From: a virus | Taxonomy: Duplodnaviria; Heunggongvirae; Uroviricota; Caudoviricetes | Virus record (IMG/VR): IMGVR_UViG_3300028888_000003 | Reading direction: 5' to 3' (one strand) | Length of the DNA stretch: 64,000 nucleotides | In this document: in pieces, positions 17,334 to 64,000 of the stretch | Layout: each line of letters starts with the position of its first letter | Numbering within the stretch: the stretch's first letter is position 1 | Translations under genes and position numbers: made by a program | The notes under the pieces: generated by a model | Told to the model about the DNA's origin: nothing | What the model saw: the letters and a program-made list of their open reading frames with translations, nothing else | Databases searched by the model: none

Positions 17334-17567
17334 TTAGAAGTTATTTTCACGCTTTTCTACGACCTCGCGCAGAAGTGATTCCGGCAACTCAATAGGTCCA
17401 TCAACCCAAGCTTCAAGTTCAACACGACCTATTGCCTTTTCACCATAGTATTCACTCAACTGTTCCATAGCATCTCCAAAGCGCTCTGCATAAAGAAAAC
17501 CTGTTTTCACGTGTTGTGCATAATCAACTTCATCATAGTATTCAACTTTATAAGTAAAAGGATACAT
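17334..17567 (-). CDS. hypothetical acidic protein
   Basis: 77 aa, RBS AAGGAGGAATAAGATG. Confidence 0.55.
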   Translation of the reverse strand: MYPFTYKVEYYDEVDYAQHVKTGFLYAERFGDAMEQLSEYYGEKAIGRVELEAWVDGPIELPESLLREVVEKRENNF

Positions 17568-17578
17568 CTTATTCCTCC

Positions 17579-19830: not shown

Positions 19831-20240
19831 ATTTTATAATACTATGTAATATGGTTTTTCGTACTTCCGCAGATTTCCATACCTTGTCTTTATCGTTTCG
19901 GCATATGCCATACTGCCGCACGCACCACAAACACTTCTGCTCTAAGGCGGTTTTCTCCTGACTACCGCAAACCATCTTAGGGACTTTATTTTACCTTGTC
20001 GCCCTAAGCTTCAAGGGTACCTCGCCGTATGGCTGGCTAATTTGCTGCCTGCTTTTCAGGTGGCTTTTACCATATTAAAAATATAGTTCAGCAGGAGTCT
20101 TACCACCAAGGCTTACAGACTTCCGAGGGTGTAAAACCATAAAGGTTGCCCGAAGGACTAAAACTGACCTCATTCGTTTGAATAAATAAATTTTAGCATT
20201 ACCCATCTCACGCCACGTGGAGGCAACTTACTTGTGAGAC

Positions 20241-21119
20241 TCTAGGTGGAGAGATTTGAACTCCCGACCCTCTGGTCCAGAAAACAATGTTATACTTTAT
20301 CCCATTCTTCATTTGAATATTTTTTTATATCTGATTTTTTTCTTGGTAAACTATAAGCATCACACCATTTACGAATAGCAGCATCACTCACACTATATAA
20401 TTTACCAATTTCTGTAAAAGGCTTTTGTCTAATTAATTCTTTAAGTTGACTTCTTGAAGGTCTATCAGCAACTTTTCTTTGAAATATGTTGTGACAACTT
20501 ACACATCTTGCGCCTTCTTTATAAACCGGAGCACCACAATCAATACATTGATGAGAAGCTAAAGTACCCAATTTCTTAATTTTTATGGGTAGTTGTTCTT
20601 CAAAATCTGACTCTTGGTATTGAGATAAATGTCCTAAAATTTTTTCAACCAAATAATCTTCTGCCATATTTACATTAGGTGGAGTTTTATTTGTTTTAGG
20701 AGTAATTCGTAAACTTTTTGTAGTACTACATTCTTCAACTGGAATTAAATAAACATTATCTTCCCAACAAGTTGCAAAATAATCAATATCATTTGAAGTG
20801 TAATAATGTCGAGTAGTTTTCTGAGTATTTGTTGTAGAACTACAACAAGAAAACGTAATGGAGTTTCTATCATCGGCCCAATGTGACTTTTTACATTGAA
20901 TACGCAAAATTTCTTTACTCGTATCAACTAAAATATCATATTTAGCTTGATTTCCATATGGAACTGAGCATTCAAATCCCATAGTCATAAACTTCATAAT
21001 ACATTGCAGTTCTACAAGATTACCTTGTATCTGAGTTTTTTCCATTTTTCCTCCTCAGAAAAGGAAAAGTATAATTTGCTTTCCAAACCAGATGCTCTAC
21101 CAAACTGAGCCACACCTAG
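20241..21119 (-). tRNA. tRNA-Pro(UGG) interrupted in anticodon loop by ~805-bp intervening sequence (5' exon 21081-21119, 3' exon 20241-20276)
   Basis: exon1 CTAGGTGTGGCTCAGTTTGGTAGAGCATCTGGTTTGGAA + exon2 CCAGAGGGTCGGGAGTTCAAATCTCTCCACCTAGA fold into perfect cloverleaf (C1-G72 acceptor, anticodon TGG). Confidence 0.7.
20290..21045 (-). CDS. endonuclease-like protein (putative homing endonuclease) inside tRNA-Pro intervening sequence
   Basis: 251 aa; PD-(D/E)XK-like YDILVDTSKEILRIQCKK, CxxC...CxxC zinc ribbon, C-terminal HTH-like; RBS GAGGAGGAAAAATG. Confidence 0.55.
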   Translation of the reverse strand: MEKTQIQGNLVELQCIMKFMTMGFECSVPYGNQAKYDILVDTSKEILRIQCKKSHWADDRNSITFSCCSSTTNTQKTTRHYYTSNDIDYFATCWEDNVYLIPVEECSTTKSLRITPKTNKTPPNVNMAEDYLVEKILGHLSQYQESDFEEQLPIKIKKLGTLASHQCIDCGAPVYKEGARCVSCHNIFQRKVADRPSRSQLKELIRQKPFTEIGKLYSVSDAAIRKWCDAYSLPRKKSDIKKYSNEEWDKV

Positions 21120-21169
21120 ATAAATTGCGGCCGGCGATATTGGACTCATCCTCACGCCGTTAAGCCGCT

Positions 21170-21245
21170 TGGCAGAGGATACCCGACTCGAACGGATACT
21201 GTAACAGTCAAAGTGTTATGTGCTTACCAATTACACCAATCCTCT
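21170..21245 (-). tRNA. tRNA-Gln(UUG)
   Basis: AGAGGATTGGTGTAATTGGTAAGCACATAACACTTTGACTGTTACAGTATCCGTTCGAGTCGGGTATCCTCTGCCA; CCA encoded. Confidence 0.75.
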
Positions 21246-21448
21246 ATACTCGTGCGAGCGACCACCTAAAAGTTTGGACTCTCACCGTGTCTTTCGTTTT
21301 ATCTCGCATTATGGGCAGAATTTGAACCATTAACCCTGGGTCGAAGCAGTTTTATAACGACGCGTACTAAAACTTTTCTCATAAAAATACGCTACGGGAG
21401 GAATTACCGTTATTATACCGCTATTCTTAAACAGGTTTACGGCACCTC

Positions 21449-21522
21449 TGGCACCGGCTAAAGGAATTGCACCCCTATCTTCGCTTTTGGAGAGCGCTGT
21501 TCTACTGTTGAACTAAGCCGAT
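21449..21522 (-). tRNA. tRNA-Trp(CCA)
   Basis: acceptor ATCGGCT/AGCCGGT, anticodon loop CTCCAAA, CCA encoded; T-stem has two G.U pairs. Confidence 0.55.
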
Positions 21523-21634
21523 ATAAGTGGTATGGCTTTTTCAAACACGGTCCGCATTGTTAAGAGGCGCTGCTTGCTTGTCGTACCATACCGAGACACC
21601 TTACTGTATCTACGACCCACTCGCGCGAAGTGGA

Positions 21635-21708
21635 ACTTGGAGCGAGTAATGGGGATTGAACCCACGCCCTCAGTGTGGAAGACTGAAATACTACCATTAT
21701 ACTATACT
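21635..21708 (-). tRNA. tRNA-Gly(UCC)
   Basis: GCGAGTA...TCAGT CTTCCAC ACTGA...GTGGGTTCAATCCCCAT TACTCGC T CCA. Confidence 0.7.
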
Positions 21709-21711
21709 CGC

Positions 21712-21783
21712 GTATGGCGCTCCGGGTAGGACTTGAACCTACAACCATCGGCTTAACAGGCCGCTCCGCCATTGAGCTACCGA
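21712..21783 (-). tRNA. tRNA-Asn(GUU)-like
   Basis: acceptor GCTTCGG/CCGGAGC, loop CTGTTAA, T-arm GTAGGTTCAAGTCCTAC; D/anticodon stem assignment ambiguous. Confidence 0.5.
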
Positions 21784-21857
21784 AGCAAATAAGGTGGGAG
21801 GAATTACCACTATTATCACGCTCGTTTCTGAATTTACAGCCTACGCTTCGCTACCTC

Positions 21858-21933
21858 TGGTGCAAGAGATAGGGATTGAACCTATGCGACCTGGATTTTC
21901 AGTCCAGTGCTCTACCATCTGAGCTACCCTTGC
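21858..21933 (-). tRNA. tRNA-Phe(GAA)
   Basis: GCAAGGGTAGCTCAGATGGTAGAGCACTGGACTGAAAATCCAGGTCGCATAGGTTCAATCCCTATCTCTTGCACCA. Confidence 0.8.
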
Positions 21934-21997
21934 ATTTAATTTAATTGCTATTAGTAAAAACAGGAAGAACCACGTGAAGGTTGCAATTATTCTTCCC

Positions 21998-22069
21998 TGA
22001 CGTCACGGAGAATCGAACTCCGGTTTTAAGAATGAAAATCTTAGGTCCTGACCGCTAGACGATGACGCC
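21998..22069 (-). tRNA. tRNA-Glu(UUC)
   Basis: GGCGTCATCGTCTAGCGGTCAGGACCTAAGATTTTCATTCTTAAAACCGGAGTTCGATTCTCCGTGACGTCA. Confidence 0.7.
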
Positions 22070-22554
22070 ATATTTCTGGAGTGCGGTGTTTTCTATGCAA
22101 CCAGATTATTCCGCACCAGTTAGGTGGTTTTTAGGAAATTTTTCCTTGTGACCGCCAAACACAAAGTTTGTTTAGAAGGCAGTTGCATCTTTGTCGCCTC
22201 GAAGCATAGTCGACTATCAGCGCTTCTATACAGATAAGTTTAACTGACATTCTGCTTGGTCAGCACTACCTATAATCGTCATTATTATTAGTGCTCTGTA
22301 TTTTATTTAACGACTTTGACAGTTCCCAGTCGGGTCCCAACATTTATATAGCGTGTAGTTCCGAATACCGCTTTTCTGAGGTTTAACGACCTTTTCAGAT
22401 ATTGGTCGGACTCAGTCATTTATATAGCGCCTACCAACTACGTCAGCGCTGCAAGTTTACTTTGCCTTCTTTTATAGCGTTTGCCACTTATGCCACATAT
22501 CACGACCGCGCCTCGTGCCGATGGTAGTTGAACTTGCAAATCCATGTTAACGCT

Positions 22555-22629
22555 TGGTTGCAGAGGTGGGAATCGAACCCACGTTGTCCAGTTTATGAGG
22601 CTGGACAGGTAACCAACAACCTCTCTGCC
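22555..22629 (-). tRNA. tRNA-Met/Ile2(CAU)-like
   Basis: T-arm GTGGGTTCGATTCCCAC, 3' CTCTGCA-A-CCA, anticodon loop CTCATAA; 5' acceptor/D-arm pairing imperfect. Confidence 0.45.
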
Positions 22630-22667: not shown

Positions 22668-22745
22668 TGGTAGGAGTGGTGGGACTTGAACCCACACACC
22701 TGTGAAGATAACGGATTTTCTTACTACTCTATGTTACCATAGCCG
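22668..22745 (-). tRNA. tRNA-like element (3' T-arm/acceptor/CCA recognisable, 5' half unresolved)
   Basis: GTGGGTTCAAGTCCCAC CACTCCT A CCA; no matching 5' acceptor strand found nearby. Confidence 0.3.
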
Positions 22746-23097
22746 CATCTCTGCGTTGTAGTCTGGACTATGTCTTCACCTTGTATTCATACTCTCTACA
22801 CGCACCCTTTGAACCATCAACTTACAGTCGGCTGGTAGGTGTCGCCTCACCTCAACTCCACAAATTTCCTCAAGAGTATAAATATTTAGGTGGGTGGTAT
22901 ATAGTCTCTACACATTTATGAATATTTGGTAAACGCGCCGAGGTACTGCCCCTCTAATTTTGTATTACCTACTTATGTTTCAGAGCATATGTAAAACACT
23001 TTCAGAGACGTAAGTCTTCCATCTATACTGGACGCGCCATATATTCAATTTAGCTCGGCGTTGTCCCCATAAGGATATTCGCCGAATTAGCCACCAT

Positions 23098-23730
23098 TCA
23101 CTCAGCGCTTTCGCTATTCTGAGTGCTCTTTTTTAAATGCATTATATTATATCGTTCAATTAATTCATATGCTCTATCATAATTTTTCCCCGCTGGAGTT
23201 AAATCTAATAGAATTAATGCTTGTCTAATTGACCGACTTTCTTGTAATGCCTGTACAAAATCTTCTTCTGGAACGGTACAATTTTGATTTTTTCTTGCAA
23301 AAGTAGGAGTATATGAATGACAATTAGGACATAACAACTATAAATTAGATAAATCATTATTACTTCTATTACCATCAATATGATGAACTTCTAAATTAAT
23401 AGGTTGTCCCAACCATTCACTTAATCCACAGTGCTCGCATTTTCTACCACGTAAAGCAATTAAAGGTACTGCTGTACTTTTACCATTTTTCTTTTTTGTA
23501 CCATTAGTAAAAGTATCATAATTATAATTTTCTTTATTCCAACCCTATCCTTTAAAATGTGAAGTATCTAAATTTAATTCTTCATACATTTTCTTTAAAG
23601 AAGCCATTGTGCCACCGCCATCAATGGCATATCCCAATTTTCGGGCAACTTCACGATTAGAATAAGAATCTTTTACAATTTCTGATAATTCTTCCCTTGA
23701 AAAATTTCTCCATTTTGCCTTATTACTCAT
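23098..23730 (-). CDS. HNH endonuclease with two in-frame TAG codons (read as sense)
   Basis: one reading frame: ...TSHFKG-TAG-WNKENY...CEHCGL...EVHHIDGNRSNNDLSNL-TAG-LLCPNCHSY...; canonical HNH motif is NLQLLC, implying TAG=Gln. Confidence 0.7.
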
Positions 23731-23940
23731 AATTAAAACCTCCTTTAGTTTCTAATTATAAGTAACTTTATTAGGCATACACTACAAATTTTTAATGCGT
23801 CTGCCAAAGTCCGTTGCGTCTGCCTATTCCGCCACACTCCCATATGTATAAAAGGTTATTACTACTGTCTAACTACTTACAGGATTCCCTATTATCCAAG
23901 CCTTTTATAAAAGTAATTTCTTTTCTCATTTACTATAATA

Positions 23941-24701: not shown

Positions 24702-24730
24702 ATTATATCAAAATTTTTAAAAAATTTCAA
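24702..24730 (-). promoter_or_regulatory. class-B late promoter
   Basis: rc TTGAAATTTTTTAAAAATTTTGATATAATATATATG. Confidence 0.6.
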
Positions 24731-24784
24731 GTTTTAGTAGAAAAAGAAAAGACAGCAGTTAAACTGCTGTCTAATTCTTTTTTA

Positions 24785-25900
24785 TCATTCAAAATCCCAA
24801 TTAAATAAATTTTTCAAGAAATTATTAAATCCACTCCAAAAATCAGCAAATTTACCCTATAAATATTCATGTAATGAATTTACTTTACTCAATAAAGTAT
24901 CATATTTTTCCTTAATAGGAAAAGCTAATTCTATTTTACCAGTAGTAATTGTACTTATTAAAGCATCTATATTGTCTGGAATATGATTATTATCATCATC
25001 ATTAAAATCAAAAATTTTATTCCATTTTTCCTAATCAAATAATGCACCAAATACACTACCTAAAATACCACCTATTCCTTTAAAGAAATTAACGATCATA
25101 TCCCAAAGTAACTATAATAAGGTTTTATGCTCAACTGCAGCAGCATTACCATCTCCGAGTTCATCTACATAAATTACAGGAATATTATCTCCCCAAAATT
25201 CCAATAATCCCGCTAATTCTTCTGTAGCTAGCCATTTTCCAATTTTTTTACTAAAATAAAATTCACCTACTTTATCTGGAAAATTGATAAGACCATAAAA
25301 TTCTTTAATAACAGCAAGCTCAGTATTTAATTCATCTTTAGAAACAGTATACCATTTAATACCATTACGTGGACGATATACTTCAATAAAATCTATTTTA
25401 TCATATAATTTTTTTAAATTTCTTTTTTTTACATCTCTGTATTTTTCATCTCCGTCTCGCGCGGTGCCTGGAATACATCTACATATTCTTGTTATTAAAA
25501 TATTTTTAGTATAAGTTGTAAAATCTATTGAACTATTTATTCCGAATCGCTCTTTGAATTCAGTAAGATTAGAAACTCCAAACCTATTTTCTAAAGTTTG
25601 CTAACTCATTGATCTTAATTCAGCTGGAGTTAATTCTTCATAATAAAACATATAAAAATTAACAATATGATTTGGAAATTTATGCATCATATTCTATGCT
25701 TTTATATAAGCATCACTTGAATGTGCAAAAAGTTCTGCATCATCCTATATATCTAAATCAGTATAGTATAATTCAAGTTTATTTTGAGTAATATCTGTAT
25801 TATTATTAGGAGTTTGGATAAAATCTGCACCTTTGACATGACTAATTGGATTACCTTTTTCATCTAAAGAAACATCTTTTCTATTAATAGGATCACTCAT
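24785..25900 (-). CDS. hypothetical protein (~371 aa) containing ~7 in-frame TAG codons
   Basis: RBS AAAGAGGTGATTAACTAATG; MSDPINRKDVSLDEKG...DLDI-TAG-DDAELF...IKA-TAG-NMMHKF...; ends TGA at 24785. Confidence 0.5.
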
Positions 25901-26874
25901 TAGTTAATCACCTCTTTAGTTTCAGGTTCAAATTCAATAAATTCCCATTTGTTAGTCTATTTATTATATGCATACCAACCCTCTTCAACAGGTAATTTAA
26001 AACTAAATACTTTATTTACTAATCTTAATGTTCTTCTAAATTCATATGGGGCTATATGCTCATATAATATATTTCCATCTTTATCATGTACTATCTACCC
26101 CTATTCATCTTTTACTGGAATTTTTTGACCATTATTATTTAATTTTTCTGGCCTATAAATTTTACAATATAATGAACAATTATATAAATGCTAATTAATC
26201 ATTGTGGCATCTTTCCATGGCGCACCTTGGGCTTCTGATTGTGATACCCAAAGTTTATATAAATCGTTTAATTGTTTTACATTCATATCAGAATATGATT
26301 TATTATCCATATCTCGACAAGATGCAACATCTTTAATATACGCGCTTTTAGTAGGTAATTTTTCTATTTTTTTGTTATTACCAGTAGCTACTAATGCTTC
26401 AAACTGTTTCTATGTAATATTGGTAAATTTATATTTACTGCCAGTTGTAATAACATTGGGAACTTCTTGTGTACCTATATCAACTTCAAAAGAATAATCT
26501 TGTGGATTTGTATTTATATATTTTGGAATATAAAATTCTATATAGTCTTGAGCTTCTTTTGGTAATACTTGCTCAAAAGAAAAATGATACTCTATTACTT
26601 TTGCATATGCTTGAGCTATATTTCTGTTAGTAATTCTAGTATCATCTACAACCAAAACTCCATTGTCAATATTATCTGGGGTCACACCATCCGTTTTAAA
26701 ATGTATATTGTATGTAAAATGTTCTGTTGGATTATAAGTAGAATAAAAATATCCCTAACTATAAAGCGGGTTTGGAATATTCATAGCGTATTCTATAATT
26801 AATTCGCCAGATTCATCATGTATAGTTCTACTTTCTATACTACTAATTGTAGGACATACTTTAATCTCCGCCAT
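25900..26874 (-). CDS. hypothetical protein (~325 aa) with multiple in-frame TAG codons
   Basis: RBS AAGGAGGGAGAGAAATG; MAEIKVCPTISS...; ORF-track fragment 26410-26685 belongs to it. Confidence 0.45.
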
Positions 26875-26948
26875 TTCTCTCCCTCCTTAAAACAAATATT
26901 TTTCCATAAAAAAGTAAAGAAAAGAGTAGATTACTCTACTCTTCTCGT

Positions 26949-27604: not shown

Positions 27605-27964
27605 TTATAAATTTAATAACCAGCCGCTTCGCTCAGCAATCCAATTATTATATTCTTTTAACCGAGCCTCTTCATTTTCTATTTTAATTATTTCTAAGAA
27701 CTCTTTTCGTGCTTGTTCTGCGGCTGCCACAGTAGGAAAGTAACAAATATTCCATTCTTCTATCGTATGAAAAATATTAAATCTATTAACTTTATAATCT
27801 TGAATTTCAACCCAATCTTCTTGTGGAATTTGTCTTCCAATTAAGGTCTTCTCAGCTTCTTCTTTTGTCCAACAAAATAGATTGTTTATACAATAAACTG
27901 TCATACCAAATTCAAGTCCTGTTTGTAATATAAAACTTGCATACTGCTTAGCTGTCATTTTCAA
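27605..27964 (-). CDS. hypothetical protein
   Basis: 119 aa. Confidence 0.5.
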   Translation of the reverse strand: MKMTAKQYASFILQTGLEFGMTVYCINNLFCWTKEEAEKTLIGRQIPQEDWVEIQDYKVNRFNIFHTIEEWNICYFPTVAAAEQARKEFLEIIKIENEEARLKEYNNWIAERSGWLLNL

Positions 27965-28319
27965 TCTCCTTTTTATTACAAATATAAGGTTTAATTCTTC
28001 CGTCTTCTACTAGCCAATCATATAATTTTGCAGCTGTAGAAAGGTCTATATCTCTTTCATCTATACCTGGATTCCATTTTGCACCATATTCAAGCTCATA
28101 AATAAAATAAGAAAAATCGGAAATATGACGATAGTCTTGATGTTCACAATCCTCTCCATAAAGAGCTAATTCGATAGCGTGAATATATTTATGAAAAATA
28201 ATACTTCCATACCAATTATCGGTAATTCCCATAATTTGTTCAATTTTATAGCACTCATTATCTAATTTTTCAAGCTCATCTATCATTTGAACAAATCTTT
28301 CTTTGCTAATTTCAAGCAT
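27948..28319 (-). CDS. hypothetical protein
   Basis: 123 aa. Confidence 0.5.
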   Translation of the reverse strand: MLEISKERFVQMIDELEKLDNECYKIEQIMGITDNWYGSIIFHKYIHAIELALYGEDCEHQDYRHISDFSYFIYELEYGAKWNPGIDERDIDLSTAAKLYDWLVEDGRIKPYICNKKEIENDS

Positions 28320-28333: not shown

Positions 28334-28897
28334 TCAAAGAAAGGTTTTACATTCTTCTACTTTTACTTTCATATCTTTGATTGCATCGTCAAGCAATACA
28401 GGGGTACAATTATGAGAATCCATACCTACGTGATATATAAAGGGCATTTCATTATAAAAATTGGTCTTTTGATGGGTATGTCCATACAGATTAATCAAAC
28501 AATTATGTAAAGAATTGCTATCAAAATTCGCAGTCATACTGGGATAATGAGAAAGATAAAAATGATATTTTTTATACTTGATAATTGTAGCATAATTTAC
28601 TTCAACTATATTATCAAGGTCTTCAACATACATTTGTTCTCGAGCGGCGCTGTCATGGTTACCAAGAATCACATGAATATAACCATTCAGTCGTGCGATA
28701 CAACTTTTACCATATTCTTTATCTCCAAGGGTTAAATCACCAAGCAGATAAACATCATCATCTTTATCTACAACTGAGTTCCAACGTTCAATTATTGCCT
28801 CATCGTGTTCTTCAATAGAATTAAAACCGCGAGGCTTATACAGAAATTCACGATCATGACCGAAATGTGTGTCGCTCGTTACGAAGATTCTCCCTGC
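28334..28897 (-). CDS. calcineurin-like metallophosphoesterase
   Basis: DTHFGH, GDLTLGD, GNHD motifs; start at MAGRIFV after AAAGGAGTAATAGT. Confidence 0.65.
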   Translation of the reverse strand, partial: AGRIFVTSDTHFGHDREFLYKPRGFNSIEEHDEAIIERWNSVVDKDDDVYLLGDLTLGDKEYGKSCIARLNGYIHVILGNHDSAAREQMYVEDLDNIVEVNYATIIKYKKYHFYLSHYPSMTANFDSNSLHNCLINLYGHTHQKTNFYNEMPFIYHVGMDSHNCTPVLLDDAIKDMKVKVEECKTFL

Positions 28898-28913
28898 CAT
28901 ACTATTACTCCTT

Positions 28914-47321: not shown

Positions 47322-47332
47322 ACACCAACTCC

Positions 47333-51876: not shown

Positions 51877-51910
51877 CTTATCATTCCTTTCTCATTCATT
51901 TCTATAATAA

Positions 51911-51939: not shown

Positions 51940-51983
51940 TTTTAACCGCCTACGACATTACGTTGTAGGCGGCGTTCCGAAAT

Positions 51984-52400
51984 TTATTTCGATGCAGTCA
52001 GCATTTTATTTGTTTTAATTGTTGCTTCAATTATAGTGGTTAACCATTCGGTAATATCACCATAGTTAGCCATAATAAATTCTTTTGCTTCTTCACTAAG
52101 CATCTCTTCTGTCTTTTCAAGAGCCATTTGAAGAGCCGCAGTTTGCTCTTCGGGAGTAAATTCATTTCTATTCTTCAGCGTGTCAACAAAAGTTTGGCTT
52201 ACGTAGTTAACTACAGTCTCAACTGTCTTTTGTATCGAATCAAGTATTCTTTTCTCATTATCAGATTGAGCCTTGTCTTTCGCCAAAGTAGTTTTAATAT
52301 TGATAAATTTAATTAACTTGGTAGTTAAAACTGGAATTACTCCAATTAATACAATACTAAGTAAATCTAAAACTGTTTTTAAAACTAATGAACCAGTCAT
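51984..52400 (-). CDS. membrane protein (possible holin/lysis-associated)
   Basis: N-terminal TM helices; adjacent to endolysin. Confidence 0.4.
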   Translation of the reverse strand: MTGSLVLKTVLDLLSIVLIGVIPVLTTKLIKFINIKTTLAKDKAQSDNEKRILDSIQKTVETVVNYVSQTFVDTLKNRNEFTPEEQTAALQMALEKTEEMLSEEAKEFIMANYGDITEWLTTIIEATIKTNKMLTASK

Positions 52401-52413
52401 TTCCTTTTCCTCC

Positions 52414-53187
52414 TTATTTAATTAAATAATTCATACTAACCCAACCACTTGGGCAATAACCCCATTTGCCATCAGTACTTAATTTAGTAATTGAAATTTT
52501 CATTCCTTTGGGGAAATAATTAACTGCTTTACCTTTAATTTTAAGTATCTGACTTTTAGCATTTGAGGTAAATTGATTATATTTAACTTTTGCATATTTT
52601 GTTCCAGCGCCCGCGCGCACATTAACGTCTGCTTTTACAGTATAATTTCCCGTCTTTTTCGTGGTCGTCGATGGCGCCGCCGCTGTAGACGTACTACCAG
52701 CCCTTAAAAAAGCCTTAGGATCAAAGTAAGTACGGTTCTAACTTGATACATAATAACCGCCTGAAAGCTTGCCTGGCTTACTAACATCAACGTGAAGATG
52801 GCGGCCTGTTGAATTACCCGTATTACCAAGATAACCAATTACTTGACCTTTTTTAACAGTATCACCAGTTTTAACAGTAACAGAGCCTTTAGTCATATGC
52901 TAATAGCGCCAACGGTATCCATCTGCGGTTTCGATATATACATAGTTGCCCATACCTTTTGTACCAGTATCTTTGATTACACCAGAAATTGAGTTTTGAT
53001 ATGATGTAACCTTGCCACCCTCAATAGCTACAATATAATCATATCCATTATTTACATTAGGATTGCCAATAACGTCAATTCCTTTATGAAGAGATCCATT
53101 GCTATAAGTATAGCCAAAATCAAGCGTCATATAATGCTCTCCCTTTTGCAATACATTCGTTTTGATTCCAGAAAGTTTCGTAGACAT
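52414..53187 (-). CDS. endolysin: M23 peptidase + SH3b cell-wall-binding domain (in-frame TAGs)
   Basis: [15 protein letters not shown] (M23 HxH) in region after TAG at 52900; C-terminal SH3b-like [13 protein letters not shown]...GWVSMNYL. Confidence 0.55.
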
Positions 53188-53191
53188 TTTA

Positions 53192-53539
53192 TCACCCCAT
53201 TAATTCAGTATTATCGTCCTCGTCGTATATAGGGTCGTCGTGAACAAAGTAGTCTGTTGATTCGTGCAAGTCAAAATCTGATTCTTTTAGTTGAAATCCC
53301 TTTTCTTCTTTTAACTTAATTCGGTCTTGAACGCGCCAGATTGAAGTTACGCGCTTTACTATATAAATTAGTGTTGTTCCCGCAATTTCAATTCCGAATA
53401 CTTCATACCATTTCTCTGTTAAAGTGGGCGAAAGCTCGGTTCCAGTAATCCATTGGAACAAGTATGCGCCCACTCCATAGAGAATACAAAGAAGTAAAGA
53501 AGCAACTACCATTACCGAAAGGAAATTAGGTTTCTTCAT
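53192..53539 (-). CDS. membrane protein (holin candidate)
   Basis: two TM helices, charged C-terminus. Confidence 0.45.
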   Translation of the reverse strand: MKKPNFLSVMVVASLLLCILYGVGAYLFQWITGTELSPTLTEKWYEVFGIEIAGTTLIYIVKRVTSIWRVQDRIKLKEEKGFQLKESDFDLHESTDYFVHDDPIYDEDDNTELMG

Positions 53540-53557
53540 TTCTTCACTTCCTTACGT

Positions 53558-53749
53558 TTAATAGATACAAGAATTTCTTTTTTTACATCTAGGACATTGT
53601 AATTTATATTCTCCACCTTTTACATTAGGAAAAGTACATGTCCATATATTGCCGCAAGAGCGACATTCAACTCGTTCTGTGCGCCAGTTCTTTTTATTGA
53701 TTTTTTTAATACCGTCTGAAAATGCTTCAAATAATTTGTCAAGTATCAT
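53558..53749 (-). CDS. zinc-ribbon small protein
   Basis: CRSCG...CPRCKKRNSC. Confidence 0.5.
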   Translation of the reverse strand: MILDKLFEAFSDGIKKINKKNWRTERVECRSCGNIWTCTFPNVKGGEYKLQCPRCKKRNSCIY

Positions 53750-53769
53750 TTAAATCAACTCCTTTAGGT

Positions 53770-55077
53770 TTGTAATACCCATTCATATGTGAGTGTTTTG
53801 TATGTATCGCCAGATACCGTTCCTACTAAAGCATATGTGCCATTAGTAGTCTTAGGAAGTTCAGGTACTAACATGTATCTAGGCCCTATGTTCCATATAC
53901 AATAGTTCTCATCTTCTGGGAAAGCAAAAGTCATTTCATCAACTGTGTCTTCCTTAAATATTTTGCATACTAAAATTATTGAAGTTTTATTTTGTTCTGT
54001 ATGATATTGTACAGTCGTAACATTTAATACCGCTAAGCCTTCTGTGTTTGAAGGTAAATCAATCTCTTCGTTTTGTCCCCATACAACGCGCAGAGCCTAG
54101 CCTTTAGCTAATGCTGCTTCAATGCTTGCATATGTTGCAGTTGAAGGACAGCGCGCCTCGCCATCAACCACTTCTCCCGCTGTAGTCAATACTTGTACTA
54201 CATATGGAGGAACTTCAAGCGAACTTTCGATAGAATTTATTTTTCTAATTAATCTATCAGGTAAGCAATTGTATTCTATTTTTTTCGTAACTGCAGCATA
54301 GAATGGTATTGTAAAGTATCCTTGATTTTCATCTAAAATCAAGAAATACATACCCCTATCAAGCTCTAATGATACGGAATCAGCTTCTGTTGATTGCTCG
54401 CCAGATTTTCCACCCGAGGCGCCGGGGAACAAATCAACAAAAGGAAGAAATGTCCCCGCAGCAGTTATATAAAAAGCGTTAATATTAAATGCTAACTCTG
54501 GACTACCATAAGACTAAAAATAACCTTCACCATTATTGTCAGCCACACTATTGTCTAAGTCTAGTGCAACTAGAGCAGATTTTTGTAGGGTTTGAGAAAG
54601 ACCAGCTAATATTTCTGTACCATCAGAACCAGGTATATAGTCTTCAATAAAGGCAGTTGCTATTTCAAGTAAGTTACCTTTATAATCAAAATATGCTGGC
54701 GGCTCGCCTTCTTCATTATTATTATCAGAAGCCGCGAAACATTTTACTTCGGCTAGATCTTGCACAAACTCTAAAGTGCCATTAACATCGGTAGTACTGA
54801 CATTATTGCTGGCTTTATATAGCATGAATCTGCAATGTTTTGAGTCTTCGTTATTTTCTAAAATATCATTATAAATTAAAGTAGGATGTTGCGGATGATA
54901 TTGATCTGTAAAAGCCTTTGTTAAGCTAACTTTTGATTGAATATTAAGTACGGTTTTTCTTGATAATTTTTCAGCCCATTCTCTACTTATTAAGCTATCT
55001 TCAGGAAAATCTCCAAATCTCTTATCAAAGATTGTTAATTCTGTACCATCAATTGCATATAAATTAGAAATTATCAT
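53770..55077 (-). CDS. tail/baseplate-associated protein (~435 aa; TAGs at 54514 and 54097 read through; 3' end approximate)
   Basis: ORF-track pieces 54514-55077 and 54097-54432 share a frame across TAG codons. Confidence 0.45.
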
Positions 55078-58000
55078 TAATTACCGCCTCCTTGAGAATT
55101 TATAAAAGCAACATTACCTACATTACCTTTTATCCAATTATATTCTGGTGCGCCATTTGTTACGGTTAATTGTAAGATATATGAACCATCTGTAGTCGGC
55201 GGATCGGGAATTGGAACTGAGGACAACTTTGTTCCACCAGTAGAGTTTGCCTCACAACCTACGTATACATCTCCCATAAAGTATGCGTTACCATTATAAT
55301 CAAGTGAATAAGCGTTTGAACGCTTGTTGTTTGCAAAACCATTACCTACCACAACTAAAGAAGAATTGGCAGCATTATAGAAACGAAAGTAAACCGAATT
55401 CCATCCGTCTACCGGTTCTTCTGGTAGATTAATAAAAGTTAACTCCTTTGTGGTATCATTATACAGACTTCTTGAAGAAATTATTGTATCATTGCCATTA
55501 ACTGGATGAAATACAATTTCTCCTGTCCATAATTCTTCTCTATGCGCATCATCATCAAAGAAGTTTGATAAATCATAAGTATTGGTAGAGGAATCAAAAT
55601 TTGAAAGAACTTTTGTAATATAAGGGTTGGTATCATCATATAATCCAGTTTTGATAGTGTTATATTGTCCGGCAGCATGCTGAATACTATTTGCTATTGT
55701 ACCACGACCTTCCGCATGTGAATATTTTCCACTTGCTGCGGTTTCCAAACCTTCTGCATGAGAATATGCCCCTTGCGCATTTGTGCGGGCTCCCTCTGCA
55801 TGGGAAAAATCTCCATATGCATAAGTTGTACTACCTTCCGCATGACCATTTTCTCCGTCAGCATGAGTAAAAGCACCTTCTACATGAGAATAATTGCCAT
55901 TAGCATAAGTCTGAGAACCTTCTGCATGAGAACTTTCTCCATTGGCCTCAGTAAAGTAGCCTTCTGCATGAGAATAGCTACCATATGCTTGAGTATTGCC
56001 GCCTTCTGCATGAGAACATTCCCCTTCTGTCTAAGTCCATCCGCCTTCAGAATGCGAATAATAACCATTTGCTATTGTTCCATTGCCTTCAGCATGAGAA
56101 ATATGACCATTAGCTTCAGTCCGCGCTCCTTCTGCATGAGAAGCATTACCTTGCGCTGTAGTGCTACCGCCTTCTGCATGAGATTCTGGCCCGATAGCAT
56201 AACTACTACCACCTTCTGCATGGGAATAATCTCCAATTGCCATTGTATTATTTCCTTCAGCATGGGCGCCCCTTATTGGATCCGCAGATTCAATATATGG
56301 ACGTCCTTGAATAGCACCACCAGTATATCTATAAAAACCAGAAGGATATTCATGGTTATTATCATATTCATCAATCCAACTATTTTCAACATAATATAAT
56401 TGACCTACTTCAGCTTCATCTGCATCCAAGTTCATTAAATCTTCATATGACGATATAATTTCATAGTCTTCGCCAAGTTTATTATTACATCCTTCAATAG
56501 ATGAATATTCAACAAAACTAGTTATAGTATTGGATTCGCCAAAAACGGCACAATTCTTTCCATCATTTACATTATTGGCTCCAACAACAATTGAACCACT
56601 ACCAGTTGGATTAACCTTGTCCATTTTATTATTTAAATTAGCAATTGTAGCATAGGTATTACTAACTAATGTCTTATAAGCATTTAAAGTATCAGTAGAT
56701 TCTGTTTTATAGGAATTTAATTCATCTAATGCAGTATTAATATTTGCCCATTGGTCTTCATTAAATACTGTAGTTGAACCCATGTCGTCTCCAATATTTT
56801 CAACAAAATTCCAAGTAAAATTATTATTACCATCTGAACTATATACATATTTTTTTAATATAGGTTTGGTATTATTATTCCAAGGATCAATAATAAAAGC
56901 ATAATCATTTACTTGAATATTATTAGTTGGCAATAAATTAGACAATTCATATTGCAATCTATAAATAACACCTTCAGAATAACCTTCTGTCAAAGTCTAT
57001 TCCTTAATAGGATTAAATGATATATCTTCAATTATATCTTCATTAAGAGCTTCTTCTACCTCTTCTGAAGTTAAATATATTTGTTCCCATGCATTATCTT
57101 GTACCTTAAAATAGTAAGGATAATCATCTATTTTTGTTGTAAAAGTACCTATATAACGATCATGGCCAAAAGCATTGCCACTTACATCAAGCGCGCCATC
57201 AATATAATCTTTTACGCCATTTGGCATACCAGCACCGATTAATAAGCCAGTTGCATTTATATTACCAGTAACATTTAGATTGCCGGTTATTGTTTCGGGA
57301 TTTGTCTATGAAAGTTTTGTATTATCTGCGGCAATTCGCGCAGCAATTTCATCATCTAAATCTGAAGCTAAATCGGTTACTGAAGCTTTAGTAGCCAATT
57401 CATTTGAATTAGAATAAACCTTGCCTGAGAAATAAGCATCACCAGTAAAATTTAATGTGCCACTTCCTTCAGGATTTGTTTTATTCATTTTTAAATCTAA
57501 GTCATCATTTAAAGCACTAGTTGCAGTTTCTAAAGCAATAATTCGATCAACTTCTGCCTAAATATATTTAGGATTTAACTATTCTACTTTTTCTTCACCA
57601 AACATGGGCCAAAGAATTACCAATGATTGATTAGATGTAAATGTCCCAGATTGCTCTGCTCTACTATCATAAATACTGTATACGCCCTTTTCAAGTGTAA
57701 TTGTTTTTTCTTTAATAGTAACAGTTGCAGGTTCTGTGCTATCAATTACTACAAATTCAACATAAGTATTATTATCTATACCATATGTATATATAGAACC
57801 GACATTATTATTTAAGAGATCTGTCTGTAATAGAGAAGCAGTCTCATTCTCAAATAATGAACTAAAAGAGCCTTGTTCTCCACCATTGATGCTTTCTTTA
57901 TGAATGGTTAAATTATTATAAATATCCTCATCAAATTCATTCTAATTCTAAGGATCTCGCGCAATATCTGATAATTTATATAATTTATAATAGCTATCAT

Positions 58001-58262
58001 CTAAATCAATTAACTTTGGCTCGTACTCATTTGTACCTTTAAAATTGCCTTCCCATAAAGGATGCACTAATTCAAAACGATTTGTAGTATAATGAGTACG
58101 ATTTTTAATATAATCAATCAAATTGCTATTATTTTGAAACCAATCTTTTTCGGTATATCCAGCCAAAGATTCTGGATCAACACTCGCGCGCAGATCATAG
58201 CGTTTATTTGCAGTATTTTTAACTCGTTTAATATAACCAACGCTTTCTATTAGATCGCTCAT
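55077..58262 (-). CDS. tail fibre protein with ~15 YadA/Hep_Hag-like SHAEG repeats (~1060 aa, at least 6 in-frame TAGs)
   Basis: RBS AAAAAGGAGG before ATG 58262; pieces 57948-58262, 57306-57488, 56997-57227, 56031-56993, 55077-55748 all in one frame; repeat phase preserved across TAG (..SEGGWT-TAG-TEGECSHAEGG..). Confidence 0.6.
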
Positions 58263-58289
58263 ACTCTAACCTCCTTTTTGATTATTTTC

Positions 58290-58330
58290 CAATTATAAGT
58301 AGAAATCCCAACTTAGTATCTCTACTAAGT
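58290..58330 (-). terminator. intrinsic terminator
   Basis: TCCCAACTTAGTAGAGATACTAAGTTGGGATTTCTACTT. Confidence 0.55.
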
Positions 58331-58342
58331 TGGGAATACTAT

Positions 58343-61300
58343 TATTTTAATGTAAATTGCACTTTAAAGTAAACTGAAATACATTCGTCTAATATGTCGG
58401 TTCCTCTTACATAGAAATCGTTGTAATTGTTACCCCATTTTGGTCCGCCTCCATTTTCACTAGTTGCTATACCACTATTATTTGGACCTGTTGCATGCTA
58501 TGTATCTGAACAGAATTTAGAATCTAAAATTTTAAATGATGCAAGTAATCCATTATATTGTAAATCACTTGAGTTTTTTGATTTGAGATGATACTATATT
58601 CTATTATCATTCCAAGCATAATGACTATTTTTATACATATTAAAATAACAATAACCTATGTATACATCTTTATCTTTATTAGCAACTATATAAGTTTTTA
58701 TAGTATCATGTCTATCTCCATTATTATTACCATTTTTCCGAGTCCCTGTTTCAAATTCTAATGGATATATTACAGTAGCTTTATTATTAACATAATCTTC
58801 TGAAGCATAATTATAACTATTTAAGTCATTATTTGTTACATAATTACTATGAGTATGCTCTTTTAATGCAAGTTCACCAGAACCACTAGTAGGTAACCAA
58901 AATACTGCATTAGCACCACTTTTAAGCTAAGATACATTATTACTAGTACTATCAGATTTAATCTTAATACCATTTGAATTTGTAAAAGTTTTACATCCAG
59001 AAATTGTCTAATCAATTTTTGTTAGGTATTCGGTATAGGTCTTTGATTTATTATCAGTATCATTAGGATCAATATAAGTATTCCAATTTTTAAGAATTTG
59101 ATTTTTCAATGTGGTAATATCAGACTATAATGCTAATGTATGTGTTCCATTCTACTTTATTGGAAACTAAAAGAAAGCATAACAACCTTCTTGAGCTTTT
59201 AAATATGAAGCTTTCCTATCAGTTGATATAAATTCAATACCTTTTGCATGTGAAAAAGATTTTAAACCCGTAATTTCTTGATCGGTATCTGTAGTAACAT
59301 AATTCTTTGGTATCATTTTTGTTATGTATTCAGTATAAGTTTTTGGTTTATCATCAGTACCATCAGGATCAATATAAGTATTCCAATTTTTAAGAATTGA
59401 TGATTTTAAATTTGTGTTTAAATTTGTAATGTCAGATTGTAATGCTAATACATTATTTATACCGCCAACCTCGGGGAAAAGAAATACAGCATTAGTGTTT
59501 GCTTGAGGTCTTAAATAGGAAACCAAAGTAGAATTTTGTGGCATAAATTGAATACCATCGGGGTGTCTAAAACATTTTTTACCAGTAATTGCTTGATAAG
59601 TTTCTTCACCATTCTCTTTATAAGTTTTTCCTGTAGTAACATAATTAGTTGATAAAGACATGAGACTGGCTATATCTGACTTCTTTATTCCGCTACGCTT
59701 TATAGAATTATCTTTATATATAGCTAAATACTCTGTATTATCATTAGTGCCTTGTTCTATATTCGCTTGTAAGTAATGACTACACTATGCAAATGCATAA
59801 GTGTTTGGATTACTTCCTGTTTGTTCTATATAGATAGGATAAAATTCAGTACCTACAGCTTGAGTAAACCGTATGCATTTATCTAATTTTTCACGAATAT
59901 CTCGATCTGCCCTATCTCTTACTGTCTCTTCATCACTAATTCTCTTCTCAATAGTATGCATCCAATATTTAGAAATACCACTATTAATTGTATCCCACTG
60001 CGCTTGAGTAAAGCTACTATTATTTAACTAATATTCAAAGCGCCAAGTCTCTTCAATTACTTCTTCAGTAGTTGGATGAGTGATTTGTACGAATTTATAA
60101 CGATGACATATAATTTTCTTTCTTTCTTCATCAGTAGTCTTTGCGTTCGTATCGGGCCTTATATTATTATCTTCAAAATCATAAATATCAGAGAACAATA
60201 CATAGTCAAGTTCAGTATCCGGTTCCCAAATTTGCACATAGCAATAGTCATTTTTATCTGGAACCGCGCTGACTTCTACGTATTCCCAAGGCGAACCTTC
60301 TGCGGCAATATTTTGAATCCATTGATAATATTTATCTTCATCGTTATTTTTTACATGGTAAATTCTATTTTCAGAAGCGGCAATTAATTCGGGAATTGGT
60401 AATTTAGTCCAGTCTGCTATATCTACCACATCATTATCAAGAGGATTATTTGAACCTTCTTCTCGTGCTGGCCAGTGATCGTTAACCCAATCATATTGAT
60501 AATATTTGTCATCATCTATAGTATGATAACAACGATTTTTATTGGTGGTCTTTGGTAAACCATTATATGAACCAGCAGTAACAGTGTTACTATCAGCATA
60601 TTTAAGCACATGAGTATTTAACCATGTGGACATTTGATCCCAATCGTTTGGATTAATTTCTTGACCGCCATTATCTTCAAAAGTATACCACACATAAATA
60701 GTATCATTTTCTTGTATACCTTTTTCTTCTATAATAGTCTCATTAATAGGAATGTTTTCGCTATATGTTACTTTATATATTTTTTTAACATCTTGATCCA
60801 AATAATATAACGGAAAACTTTCAGTTGTATTTGGATCGGTTAAATCTACTTCCTCTAATTCTAATTCAGGATCTGTTTTCGCGACATTAACTGTCTTTGG
60901 ATTATAATCTTCAGGAGTAACTACACCACGATAAGTCGCTGTAGCAGTAGCAATTGAAGAATTTACGAAAAATTTATCAGCAAATTCATTCGGAACTACT
61001 TCATTATTAATTACAGCTGAAGTATATAAATTTTCAGGTATGCGCTCATTATGAATTTCACCATGAACATATAAACCATTAAAGGTAGAAAGAGAGCCAT
61101 TCCAGTTACCCCAGAATGTACCGCCTGTTCTGTTTACGTCATTTCCTTGGCTTCCAATAGTAAGAGTATCGCCAAATAATGATTCTCCTTTAACTGCAAG
61201 ACTAATATTGTCAGTTGGCCAAGTCATACCTAAATTTGCAGTTGGTTGACCATCACGCTCAATTGTAACTTTTTCTCTAAACCTTGAATGTTTAAGTACG

Positions 61301-64000
61301 TCAAGTGCGGGATTTGCATCACTATGATCGTCAACTGAATCACCAATTGTTACACGATCACTTAAATCAGAAGTACCGTCAATTTCTAAGTGACCGGCCG
61401 CATATGTATCGCCGTCTTCGGTTATTGCAAAGAGATTTCCCTTTGAGTAGTTTTTACCATCTTCCCTTGTTCCATCTCTATTTGCTTTAATACTGCCACT
61501 ACCAATACCAATATTTTTATTTCTTGTAGCGCTTAACTAACTATCACCATCACCAATTGCAAATATAATTGGTTTATCCTCTTCTTTTATTTCTGTATCT
61601 CCACCGTAATATTTATCAACAGTATGAGTAGTTTTTGCAAGTACACCTTCTAAATGCTAGTATCTTCTGTTGGCAATATTACCTGCACCTTCTACATGCA
61701 CACTTTCTACGCTTGAGTTTGCTGTCTAAGCAACAATATTATTTTTGCCCTCGACATGAGAGAAATTAGCGTCTTCTTTAATTGTATTTTCTGAACCTTC
61801 TGCGTGAGCAGCAGTGGTAGAACTTCCTTCAATTTTATTTAACTCGCCTTCAGCATGATTATAATGTCCAGCTACCGTCTAAGCATAGCCTTCTGCATGT
61901 GAAGCTATACCGCTTACTTCAGATGGTTTTCCGCCAACTTCGCCAAAAAAGTCATTTTCACCATCAAAATATTCAACAAGTTCGGAATAATCACCAAGAC
62001 CTTCAATATGTGATAAAAGACCAGTAGAAGTAACTTTTGTACCAAGTCCTTCTGCGTGGGAGTTAAGAGCGGCCGCAGTAGTGGATTCGCCTTTGGCGTT
62101 AGCATTATTGCCAGAAGCAGTCGTGTTTTTTCCTTCTGCATGGGCATTTGTTCCTTCAGCAATAGTAGATTCGCCTTCTGCATGAGAATTTGTACCAGAA
62201 GCTGTCGTATCTTTACCTTCTGCATGAGCATTTGTTCCACCAGTATATGTTGTTACTCCGCCTGAAGTAGTAATTATTCCTGTTTTTGTGCCGTTACCTT
62301 CAGTATGAGAAGAAGCACCTATTGCGATACTATTTGTACCTTCTGCATGAGCGGCTTGTTTTCTAGCTGTAGTTCCATGACCTTCTGCATGGGAACCTTT
62401 TCCTAAAGCAGTGGTGCTCTAACCTTCTGCATGCGCAGAAGCACCAGAAGCCTCATTATGAGCATCAATAACATTATTACTAGCGTTGAGATCACAGCCA
62501 CCTTCTGCATGGGAAGCCTGACCAGAAGCTACATTTTTATAACCCTCTACATGTGAAATATAACCAGAAGCAATCGCTTGTCTACCTTCTGCATGTGCAT
62601 AGAAATTATTAGCTTCAGTATAATAGCCTTCTGCATGAGAGCTAGTTCCTAGTGCTATAGTTCCTTCGCCTTCTGTATGCGACTAGTTACCTTTTGCTTT
62701 AGTTGAACTACCAGTCGCAACAGCGTTATTACCAGTAGCTTCTACATCAGTACCAACTTCAAGAGAATGTCTACCAATTGTATCATCATCTTGAATACCA
62801 TTTGCGCGAGTACCAACTGTGAGTGAACCATAATCTTGTTTTGAATTATAAATTTCTTCATTATTGTCATTGTATCTATCTGTAATTGGCCTAAATTTAA
62901 CACCATCCCAATAGAAATATGTTCCACCATCATATTCCCCATTTGCTTTAGCAGGATTAGGATCTACAAGTCTATACAAATCAGTAGAAGGCGTATAACT
63001 TTTATCCTCACCAAGCTAATAAACCTTGCCTGTTTTAGGAATTACTCTTATATTCTCTCTATAAGTACAGCTCGACTATCCCGTTGTAATTTGTAAACCA
63101 GATATAAATTGAATATTCCCGTCTGGATTTGCCCTAGCCCTACAATTGGTATATTCACCTTCAAAGGTCTATAGTGTTTCTTCTCCATGTCTATAGTATA
63201 CATCTTGTTCGTTTATATTTCGGTAGATATCTCCAATCTAAAGTTTGTCATTAATTTTAATTTGTTTAAATTTATTATCTTCATAATAAAACTCGGTATA
63301 GTTTGAAGTAATATCATCAGGATCTGTATAAATCCTATATTTCCATCCTTTTATACCTTCAAGCTCTTTATCAGCTTCATAATATAAATGTCCATACCAT
63401 TTATCAACAATTGGTTCTATTCTATTATCAGCTTTCATACAAAAATGACGATACTAAGAATCATTAGAGGCCGGAGTATTATCATTACAGAACCAACAAT
63501 CTTTTAATATTTGAGAATCATCAATTGTAGTAAAATTAGTGAGATTGTCATTTTCATCTCTTTCTGTGCTAGAAGCATTAACTCTATAAATTTGATCATC
63601 GACTTTAAAGAATTTATTTGCTATTTCTTCATCTTGCACATAAGTATGACCTTGTATTTTCGCGCCGTCATGATGTATAGAAAGTGCAAAACCGTGGGTT
63701 TGATGAGTAAGGTTACTACTAAGAGCAGGATCAAAATAATTCTTGTTATCTATAACAGTCTTTTTGATCTCTCTATCGGTGTAGTCTCCAACACCATCTT
63801 CAATAATCATACCTCTATCAGCATTAACTGTAGTATGAGATACAATTTCTTTATACGCTTCAATTGTACCAAAACCAGTACCATAATAAGGATGATCAGG
63901 ATCTTCGGTTTCATCCCAGTCTTCACCGTTATATCTATCTTCACCACGATTAATATAAACTTTAGGATACTATCCGTGATTTGGAATTAAATGGCCGAAA
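58343..64000 (-). CDS. giant tail fibre/adhesin-like protein with Hep_Hag-like repeats (>1880 aa, many in-frame TAGs; 5' end beyond window)
   Basis: 63456/63240/62685/61227/60030/59169 codon positions all congruent mod 3; 59661-60030 checked codon by codon: only TAG interruptions, no TAA/TGA; EATGNNAVATGSSTKAKGN and SHAEG repeats. Confidence 0.5.

Follow-up and report, generated by a model that had tools for sequence, protein, structure and literature searches.

The 64,000-nucleotide stretch of DNA considered here (the window, from the IMG/VR virus record IMGVR_UViG_3300028888_000003) is 64 kb of the 139-kb genome of an SPbeta-like siphovirus found in gut or rumen metagenomes. Our analysis indicates that in some of its genes this phage very probably reads TAG as glutamine and that the codon is probably decoded by a phage tRNA(CUA) encoded beside a tRNA-Leu(UAG). 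Window positions 1-64000 correspond to positions 79372-15373 (reversed) of ena:ERZ27257205:k141_6637418 (139,084 bp; GC content 34%). Flanking DNA was reached from exact protein matches used as anchors, which extended the sequence covered by the analysis to record positions 1667-99347, i.e. 97.7 kb or ~70% of the genome, the uncovered ~30% being record positions 1-1666 and 99348-139084.

Using stop-to-stop frames computed with TAA and TGA alone as stops, long TAG-rich frames were found on the minus strand of the window at 58342-63999 (1886 codons with 21 in-frame TAG), 55077-58292 (1072 codons, 8 TAG), 39212-41737 (842 codons, 7 TAG), 36541-38151 (537 codons, 10 TAG), 24785-25903 (373 codons, 6 TAG) and 25900-26886 (329 codons, 6 TAG), and not a single TAA or TGA occurs within them. 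TAA and TGA together make up ~5% of codons per frame, and the chance of 1886 codons being free of both is ~1e-40, as estimated from the counts. When TAG was treated as sense, stop-to-stop frames with 100 or more codons increased in total length from 50.4 kb (code 11) to 70.5 kb, as would be expected from an initial annotation of the window that had favored code 15 over code 11. The segment 59661-60030, described there as devoid of TAA and TGA, falls within the longest of these frames. Known motifs and domains are likewise continuous across TAG: the HNH endonuclease at 23098-23730 reads DLSNL-TAG-LLCPNCH and thereby contains the NL-TAG-LLCPNCH motif previously quoted, the SHAEG repeats of the tail fibers keep their period and register across TAG codons, as had been noticed, and Pfam domain matches cross TAG positions in both the M23 peptidase (residues 34-139) and the HNH protein (residues 114-155). 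Exact TAG-to-Q translations of the contig's proteins are already on record in a public protein collection.

TAG is never credibly used as a terminator, and genes end with TAA or TGA, in agreement with the initial annotation. Plus-strand open reading frames (ORFs) of at least 60 aa terminate with TAA (25), TGA (6) or TAG (2); of the two ending with TAG, one overlaps a longer gene in another frame and the other is absent from the gene calls of the collection.

The identity of the residue inserted at TAG was analyzed over 39 alignment columns with TAG, drawn from four genes for packaging and portal proteins, using close homologues from IMG/VR relatives (protein identity 45-62%; terminase 57-62%). 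The residues opposite TAG were Q (36), K (12), R (10), S (8) and E (7), ten of the 39 columns being entirely Gln, and the log-likelihood over all columns was best for Q, with K 23 nats worse. At the codon level, TAG faced CAA (37), TAG (27), AAA (13) and CAG (10) in these relatives, CAA and CAG together accounting for 47. Comparison with a close strain (L025, Logan DRR595514) provided 34 variable TAG sites, at which the strain has CAA (12), CAG (8) or other codons (14), Lys codons being absent. In addition, the ratio CAG/(CAA+CAG) is 0.13-0.17 in TAG-using genes versus 0.39-0.58 in TAG-free genes; counting TAG together with CAG brings the TAG-using genes to 0.43-0.58, and their Gln content, TAG included, from 2.1% to 3.0-3.2%, as is typical of other genes. 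Since the share of CAG is restored by counting TAG, TAG behaves as a stand-in for CAG and therefore as Gln. Taken together, homologous codons, close-strain polymorphism and CAG depletion agree in supporting a code-15-type assignment of TAG to Gln, as the initial annotation had proposed by analogy with crAss-like and Lak phages; in-frame TAG, its Gln correspondence, its avoidance as a terminator and a tRNA(CUA) all fit this analogy.

The initial annotation had left the suppressor mechanism open, and its statement that the tRNA array of the window holds no CUA anticodon is literally true of the array; a putative amber suppressor tRNA(CUA) is, however, encoded elsewhere in the window, at 48538-48612 on the minus strand (75 nt, CCA encoded), and most likely decodes TAG. 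It was found with a regular expression describing a 5-bp stem around a YTCTARN loop, and a tRNA-Leu(UAG) gene (48450-48526, minus strand) follows 11 nt downstream. RNAfold predicts a perfect cloverleaf (-30.3 kcal/mol) with the anticodon loop CU-CUA-AA, a U1.U72 mismatch, G2-C71 and G73. Its T-loop (GGCAGCA) is degenerate and its D-loop is without GG, which is why neither the Rfam tRNA model nor ARAGORN, even at -ps80, detects the gene. Accordingly, the ARAGORN search for Sup-CUA genes that had been suggested called none within the 97.7 kb of 139 kb covered in the studied phage, but it did call a tRNA(cta) with a canonical TTCGAGT T-loop at the homologous position in a relative (L093, ClpP 87% identical). 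There, too, the tRNA lies just upstream of tRNA-Leu(UAG), the gene pair thus being kept, and its predicted structure is the same as that of the suppressor. A third homologue (L095) is located within the tRNA array of another phage, and RNAalifold of the three homologues yielded 21 pairs with compensatory double changes in 8.

This conservation suggests that the tRNA functions as a suppressor. The weak 1:72 pair, G73 and U35, which are classical GlnRS determinants in E. coli, point to charging with Gln, and the tRNA(cta) of the relative also resembles the presumed sequence of E. coli tRNA-Gln2. No further CUA tRNA was found in the 97.7 kb covered, even with the ARAGORN intron option, nor was any suppressor tRNA present at 54 gyrase-B loci of relatives. 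A 'tRNA-Stop(tta)' proposed by ARAGORN under relaxed thresholds (24722-24796) is AT-rich with a non-canonical T-arm and was dismissed as a false positive. Upstream of the suppressor by ~500 nt, a sigma-70-type promoter-like site (TTGACT-17-TG-TATAAT, 49111-49139, minus strand) agrees with the consensus at 11 of 12 positions and has an extended -10; this is a consensus match only, and such sites are not above shuffle expectation in the region. The ~500 nt between this site and the suppressor (48613-49110, minus strand) hold no gene called by the collection. A conserved 64-codon ORF with one in-frame TAG (48619-48813, minus strand) ends 6 nt before the suppressor tRNA.

We next consider which genes use TAG. 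Of the 57 genes with 60 aa or more on the minus strand of the window, 21 do so, with 87 TAG codons amounting to 35% of their Gln+TAG sites; a few of these 21 are start-codon artefacts when set against the gene calls of the collection. The remaining 36 genes have 150 Gln codons and no TAG (P ~2e-28 at the rate of the TAG-using genes), and together with the plus-strand block (P ~1e-13) more than 200 Gln codons are found without any TAG. The proposed split between late minus-strand and early genes is thus broadly true, although only this fraction of minus-strand genes uses TAG and the capsid, scaffold, holin and auxiliary block are free of it. TAG-freeness of the plus-strand genes also held in essence, as no in-frame TAG there is credible; the only called gene with one is 12987-13286, at codon 13, 5' of the likely true start M18. 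A 224-aa ORF with 6 TAG at 27605-28279 was set aside as partly spurious, the collection calling two shorter genes there. The idea that recoding is confined to the late strand did not hold, because four TAG-using genes, namely a GIY-YIG endonuclease gene and three neighbors, reside in the opposite-strand replication block, whose genes for gyrase B, helicase, ligase and RNase H lack TAG. The TAG contrast is one between gene classes rather than between strands, and is not a simple early/late split.

On the minus strand of the window, the TAG-using genes include the SHAEG (YadA-head-like) repeat tail-fiber gene (58342-64000; full product 2127 aa, its start 725 nt past the window end, 21 TAG in the window part), a second SHAEG-repeat fiber gene (55077-58262; 1061 aa, 7 TAG, with its exact TAG-to-Q translation in the public collection), a gene for a 437-aa protein without assigned function (53764-55077; 2 TAG) and the M23 peptidase endolysin gene (52414-53130; 238 aa, 2 TAG in codons ending at 52902 and 52740, the M23 domain spanning the first). 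Further along lie genes for a tail-fiber-like protein (42801-44168; 455 aa, 2 TAG), for proteins of 294 aa (41753-42637; 3 TAG), 841 aa (39212-41737; 7 TAG) and 526 aa (36541-38121; 9 TAG), and two adjacent genes for proteins of 371 and 324 aa (24785-26874; 6 TAG each). Between the endolysin and the tail-fiber-like gene, the auxiliary block (44304-52400, minus strand) is TAG-free and houses the suppressor tRNA; it comprises a holin (phrog_13712, 51984-52400), a metallophosphoesterase, ClpP, PhoH and an AAA_33/KTI12-like kinase. The plus-strand block of small genes and an AAA_5 ATPase (446-17081) has neither an in-frame nor a terminal TAG that is credible. Outside the window, TAG occurs in the genes for the terminase (13), a YonG-like protein (10), a 451-aa protein (12) and the portal (3), and in seven genes of the capsid-to-tape-measure interval, including two YomU tube-like and one YomW-like, with 1-9 each. 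The densest use seen in the genome is that of the tape measure (L026:16912-21137, record 95122 onward; 3659 aa), of whose first 1408 codons 40 are TAG (2.8%). Besides the holin, PhoH, ClpP and kinase genes, those for RNA ligase, Band-7, isochorismatase, phosphoesterases, scaffold and major capsid are TAG-free.

Three further features of these regions are recorded here. The GIY-YIG endonuclease gene (339 aa, 9 TAG; L030:3058-5794, record ~4700-7460, outside the window) adjoins a UvrD-type helicase gene, into which a mobile element may have been inserted. Window positions 38489-38995 and 44304-44804 (minus strand) encode two paralogues, 168 and 166 aa long and without TAG, that have similar N-termini and C-terminal motifs, and each precedes a TAG-using gene block. 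The plus-strand block contains, at window positions 1783-13343, 13 copies of a 21-bp palindrome, TTTAGACGTAWTACGTCTAAA (core AGACGT-N3-ACGTCT), which is confined to this early block within the 88.2 kb scanned (record 11111-99347) and could be an operator or a transcript-structure motif.

These distributions suggest a model in which the suppressor, encoded within the TAG-free auxiliary block, would decode TAG as Gln in tail fibers, tape measure, tail and packaging proteins, endolysin, homing endonucleases and several genes without assigned function. The plus-strand early block, core replication genes, auxiliary-enzyme block, major capsid and scaffold, and holin avoid TAG. TAG-using genes would be completed only after suppressor expression, amounting to temporal or safety gating as proposed for such phages, with the 'late-phase' timing presumed from gene function, and TAG would have originated mostly through CAG to TAG transitions.

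Several observations weigh against this interpretation. In eight distant standard-code homologues (29-41% identity), Lys stands opposite TAG in 8 of 25 columns, and K represents 35 of the 112 residues opposite TAG in eight cultured Firmicutes-phage homologues. The 13 terminase TAG correspond mostly to Lys in eight cultured standard-code homologues, three columns being conserved Lys, and the column-weighted likelihood over the 25 columns with distant homologues places K first and Q 11 nats behind, though the identical method gives Q for the code-15 phage phAss-1. As for the decoder, the suppressor is missing the canonical D-loop/T-loop elbow, and many Firmicutes are without GlnRS; additional suppressors, a release factor or a synthetase could be encoded in the uncovered ~30% of the contig. 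Finally, the TAG-free holin conflicts with a strict model in which lysis genes are gated. In the terminase gene (L001:4244-6055) and its neighbors, just upstream of window position 1, columns that hold TAG in the phage and CAA/CAG in relatives at ~60% identity are conserved Lys (also Tyr, His, Arg) in the distant homologues. The Lys residues could be taken to mean that TAG is decoded as Lys or as a Gln/Lys mixture, e.g. by a CUA tRNA charged by LysRS, and several engineered E. coli amber suppressors are indeed charged with Lys. We nevertheless consider this very unlikely: the columns showing Lys in distant homologues have CAA/CAG in the closer relatives, whose alignment prefers Q over K by the margin given above, the close strain has 20 swaps between TAG and Gln codons and none between TAG and Lys codons, and CAG is depleted ~three-fold in TAG-using genes while AAG is depleted less than two-fold (0.15-0.19 vs 0.26-0.27). 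The Lys in distant homologues rather looks like a clade-level K-to-Q difference, and inferring the residue at TAG from distant homologues alone misleads by giving Lys. The phage tRNA-Gln(UUG) was also discarded as a near-cognate reader of UAG, since it would then read TAA, the main stop codon, too.

Other readings dispense with recoding, or with the phage as its driver. The genes are fragmented under code 11, and the JGI calls on its own copy of the contig, made under that code, are fragments, as pseudogenes or assembly and sequencing artefacts would produce. The probability of this reading is negligible: the interruptions are always TAG and never TAA or TGA, independent assemblies from other samples (Logan SRR9006805, JGI 3300024337 and Logan SRR7633495) are 100% identical over aligned spans, and the genes hit are essential, with 13 TAG in the terminase, 3 in the portal and at least 40 in the tape measure. 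TAG sites are moreover conserved, 45 being common to the phage and the close strain L025, between which other codon differences are mostly synonymous (628 vs 273 non-synonymous). A 95%-identical contig is present in SRR16020815, and both endolysin TAG are retained in the 95%-identical contig L006, with nearly all downstream changes synonymous; pseudogenization, which had been named as what could refute the proposal, is thus excluded, as are assembly artefacts. If the host itself read TAG as sense and the phage simply shared its code, no phage-driven switch would be needed; the metagenome-assembled genome (MAG) matches of the capsid gene are of mixed taxonomy and uninformative as to the host. 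This, too, is highly improbable given the phage's own tRNA(CUA) and the total absence of TAG from 36 minus-strand genes and the plus-strand block at the significance given above. A more serious alternative retains the decoding and removes its regulatory purpose, with CAG drifting neutrally to TAG in genes translated after the suppressor and highly expressed genes staying TAG-free since suppression is inefficient. It accords with the specific replacement of CAG, with TAG-free abundant virion proteins (capsid, scaffold) and holin whereas the huge low-copy tape measure has 2.8% TAG, and with TAG in selfish homing-endonuclease ORFs (HNH, GIY-YIG); the sharp all-or-none split of gene sets and the convergent pattern in other clades suggest selection instead. 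We hold neutrality to be possible but the less probable of the two.

With TAG-to-Gln decoding by the phage's own tRNA(CUA) as the preferred reading, we turn to the lineage and host of the phage. Precomputed Pfam hits of genes flanking the window match the SPbeta families YonB, YonD_N, YonG_N, YomU_Tube and YomW, and a YonB-type major capsid, YonD scaffold, YonG and YonF packaging proteins, YomU tube and giant tape measure are all present. In these hits, as in the giant tape measure and the syntenic order of 451-aa gene, YonG-like gene, terminase, portal, scaffold and capsid, the phage resembles large SPbeta-like siphoviruses (SPbeta, Geobacillus E3, Brevibacillus Sundance, Enterococcus VRE9_4 and H1, and the Lactococcus 949 group); it differs in that the terminase has no in-frame stop under code 11 in the eight of them that were translated. 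By tblastn, 146 phage records in GenBank match the terminase, whose gene lies just beyond the window, at no more than 41% identity, nearly all of them from Firmicutes phages, including Geobacillus E3, Enterococcus VRE9_4 and H1, Brevibacillus Sundance, and Bacillus, Lactococcus and Clostridium phages. For the capsid protein, 2946 homologues were found in public assemblies, many on contigs of ~120-130 kb. Megablast of window positions 36000-56000 against INPHARED returned no phage match, an exact 41-mer had no counterpart in IMG/VR, the 526-aa protein had none by tblastn against phages and none in IMG/VR, and a fragment of the tape measure found no relative in JGI metagenomes. A capsid search in GTDB genomes gave seven matches, all on contigs of MAGs or metagenome-derived bins (Muribaculaceae, Faecalibacillus, Staphylococcaceae, Methanobrevibacter, Bacteroidaceae, Lachnospiraceae and Erysipelothrix); this mixed taxonomy suggests mis-binned phage contigs, so that the host is not identified by them. 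The Gram-positive host proposed in the initial annotation is consistent with Firmicutes phages being the cultured relatives of the terminase and with the SPbeta hits.

Ten tRNAs, two of them split, were found in the 98 kb covered, in addition to the non-canonical suppressor. Default ARAGORN and Rfam detected eight tRNAs in the window, none with a CUA anticodon, and no more canonical tRNAs were found beyond the window in record 1667-99347. Seven canonical tRNAs (Gln-UUG, Trp, Gly, Asn, Phe, Glu and Met) form the array at 21170-22629 on the minus strand. Next to it, ARAGORN with the intron option revealed a split tRNA-Leu(UAA) (22668-23841, minus strand) with a 1087-nt candidate group I intron between U34 and A35, inside which lies the HNH endonuclease ORF introduced above (23098-23730, minus strand; 210 aa, 2 in-frame TAG, HNH Pfam hits). 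The insertion site and the tRNA halves agree with the tRNA-Leu(UAA) group I intron of cyanobacterial and plastid type, and the core match (22741-23145, Rfam RF00028) reaches 41 bits, below the gathering score of 50. A well-formed tRNA-Pro(UGG) at 20240-21120 (minus strand) is likewise split by an 805-nt insert at position 37/38, 756 nt of which are taken up by a TAG-free PD-(D/E)XK_5 endonuclease ORF (20290-21045, minus strand); this family includes I-Ssp6803I, the homing endonuclease from the tRNA-fMet intron of a cyanobacterium. In this insert no ribozyme was detectable, and too little space is left for a group I core. [quoted passage not shown] Theta (minimal HDV-like) ribozymes adjoin phage tRNAs, including those of recoded gut phages (Kienbeck et al. 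2024, PMC10879173). The candidate resembles them as a tRNA-adjoining HDV-like fold in a TAG-recoded phage and differs in its sub-threshold score and in having tRNA-Pro rather than the suppressor as its neighbor.

A set of predicted tRNA healing-and-sealing genes is found on the same strand as the tRNA genes, at window positions 29201-30322, 45185-45616, 28334-28900 and 49136-49858 (minus strand), all TAG-free; it consists of a T4 Rnl1-type RNA ligase, an AAA_33/KTI12/Zeta-like (PNK-like) kinase and two metallophosphoesterases with Pfam matches. No RF2 or aminoacyl-tRNA synthetase was found among the Pfam-annotated genes of the 98 kb covered. The elbow-less suppressor, the two split tRNA genes, the HDV-like ribozyme at tRNA-Pro and the ligase, kinase and phosphoesterases give rise to the idea that the code switch might hinge on tRNA maturation by a phage module and not on a simple suppressor gene. 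We regard this as unlikely; if phage enzymes did process, splice or repair tRNAs, including protein-dependent splicing of tRNA-Pro, then TAG decoding and other decoding would be tied to phage-controlled RNA processing. Degenerate suppressors of such a type could also account for the low share (40%) of TAG-recoded phage genomes in which Borges et al. detected a suppressor tRNA.

A 2014 report by Ivanova is said to be among those on code-15 recoded gut phages. TAG-to-Gln recoding has been described in crAss-like and Lak phages and six other clades, including large Firmicutes-infecting phages of cattle and pigs; structural and lysis genes use TAG, early genes keep the standard code and TAG stops are avoided, with a suppressor tRNA detectable in only 40% of TAG-recoded genomes (Borges et al., 10.1101/2021.08.26.457843). 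In crAss-like phages, Gln at TAG was confirmed by proteomics (Peters et al., PMC9523058). The phage studied here is akin to the code-15 clades (crAss-like, Lak, Garnet, Amethyst, Agate, Topaz) in having TAG concentrated in structural, packaging and lysis genes, none in early and core replication genes, avoidance of TAG as terminator, a phage-encoded tRNA(CUA) and relatives pointing to a standard-code Firmicutes host, and its 139 kb is near the size of the Agate clade (~127-154 kb; cattle and pig samples). It differs in its SPbeta-like lineage (YonB capsid, YonF-type terminase), the degenerate T- and D-loop of its suppressor, its TAG-free holin and major capsid, and the lack of an RF2 or aminoacyl-tRNA synthetase among the Pfam-annotated genes of the 98 kb covered.

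The gut-virome siphovirus phAss-1 (OQ749652, ~136 kb, proposed Phassvirus) reads TAG as Gln in 28% of its ORFs, including terminase, portal, tape measure and fiber, and has 36 tRNAs, three canonical Sup-CTA genes and no dedicated synthetase (Babkin et al. 2023, PMC10607447). It shares with the studied phage a homologous terminase, a similar size, TAG-to-Gln recoding and a Sup-CTA tRNA; in contrast, the terminases are only 34% identical, there is no nucleotide similarity by megablast of window positions 36000-56000, and the 36 tRNAs and canonical Sup-CTA genes set phAss-1 apart. The three proposed Phassvirus species share 80.4-86.4% nucleotide identity (PMC10607447), and the studied phage, without such identity, falls outside this genus.

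Overall, the phage belongs to the SPbeta-like group of large siphoviruses and uses code 15. The phenomenon itself is already known, and what goes beyond the known picture is the degeneracy of the suppressor, the absence of TAG from capsid, scaffold and holin, and its presence inside homing-endonuclease ORFs. Code 11 shreds the terminase, portal, tape measure, fibers and endolysin, so that code 15 is needed to annotate the phage. Since the suppressor is invisible to ARAGORN and the Rfam tRNA model and large inserts conceal two more tRNA genes, a finding of 'no suppressor' for recoded phages is not to be taken as absence; here, an anticodon stem-loop search combined with comparison to relatives was sufficient to recover the hidden gene. 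TAG-to-Gln recoding is thereby extended to a distinct SPbeta-like lineage whose capsid family is abundant in metagenome assemblies.

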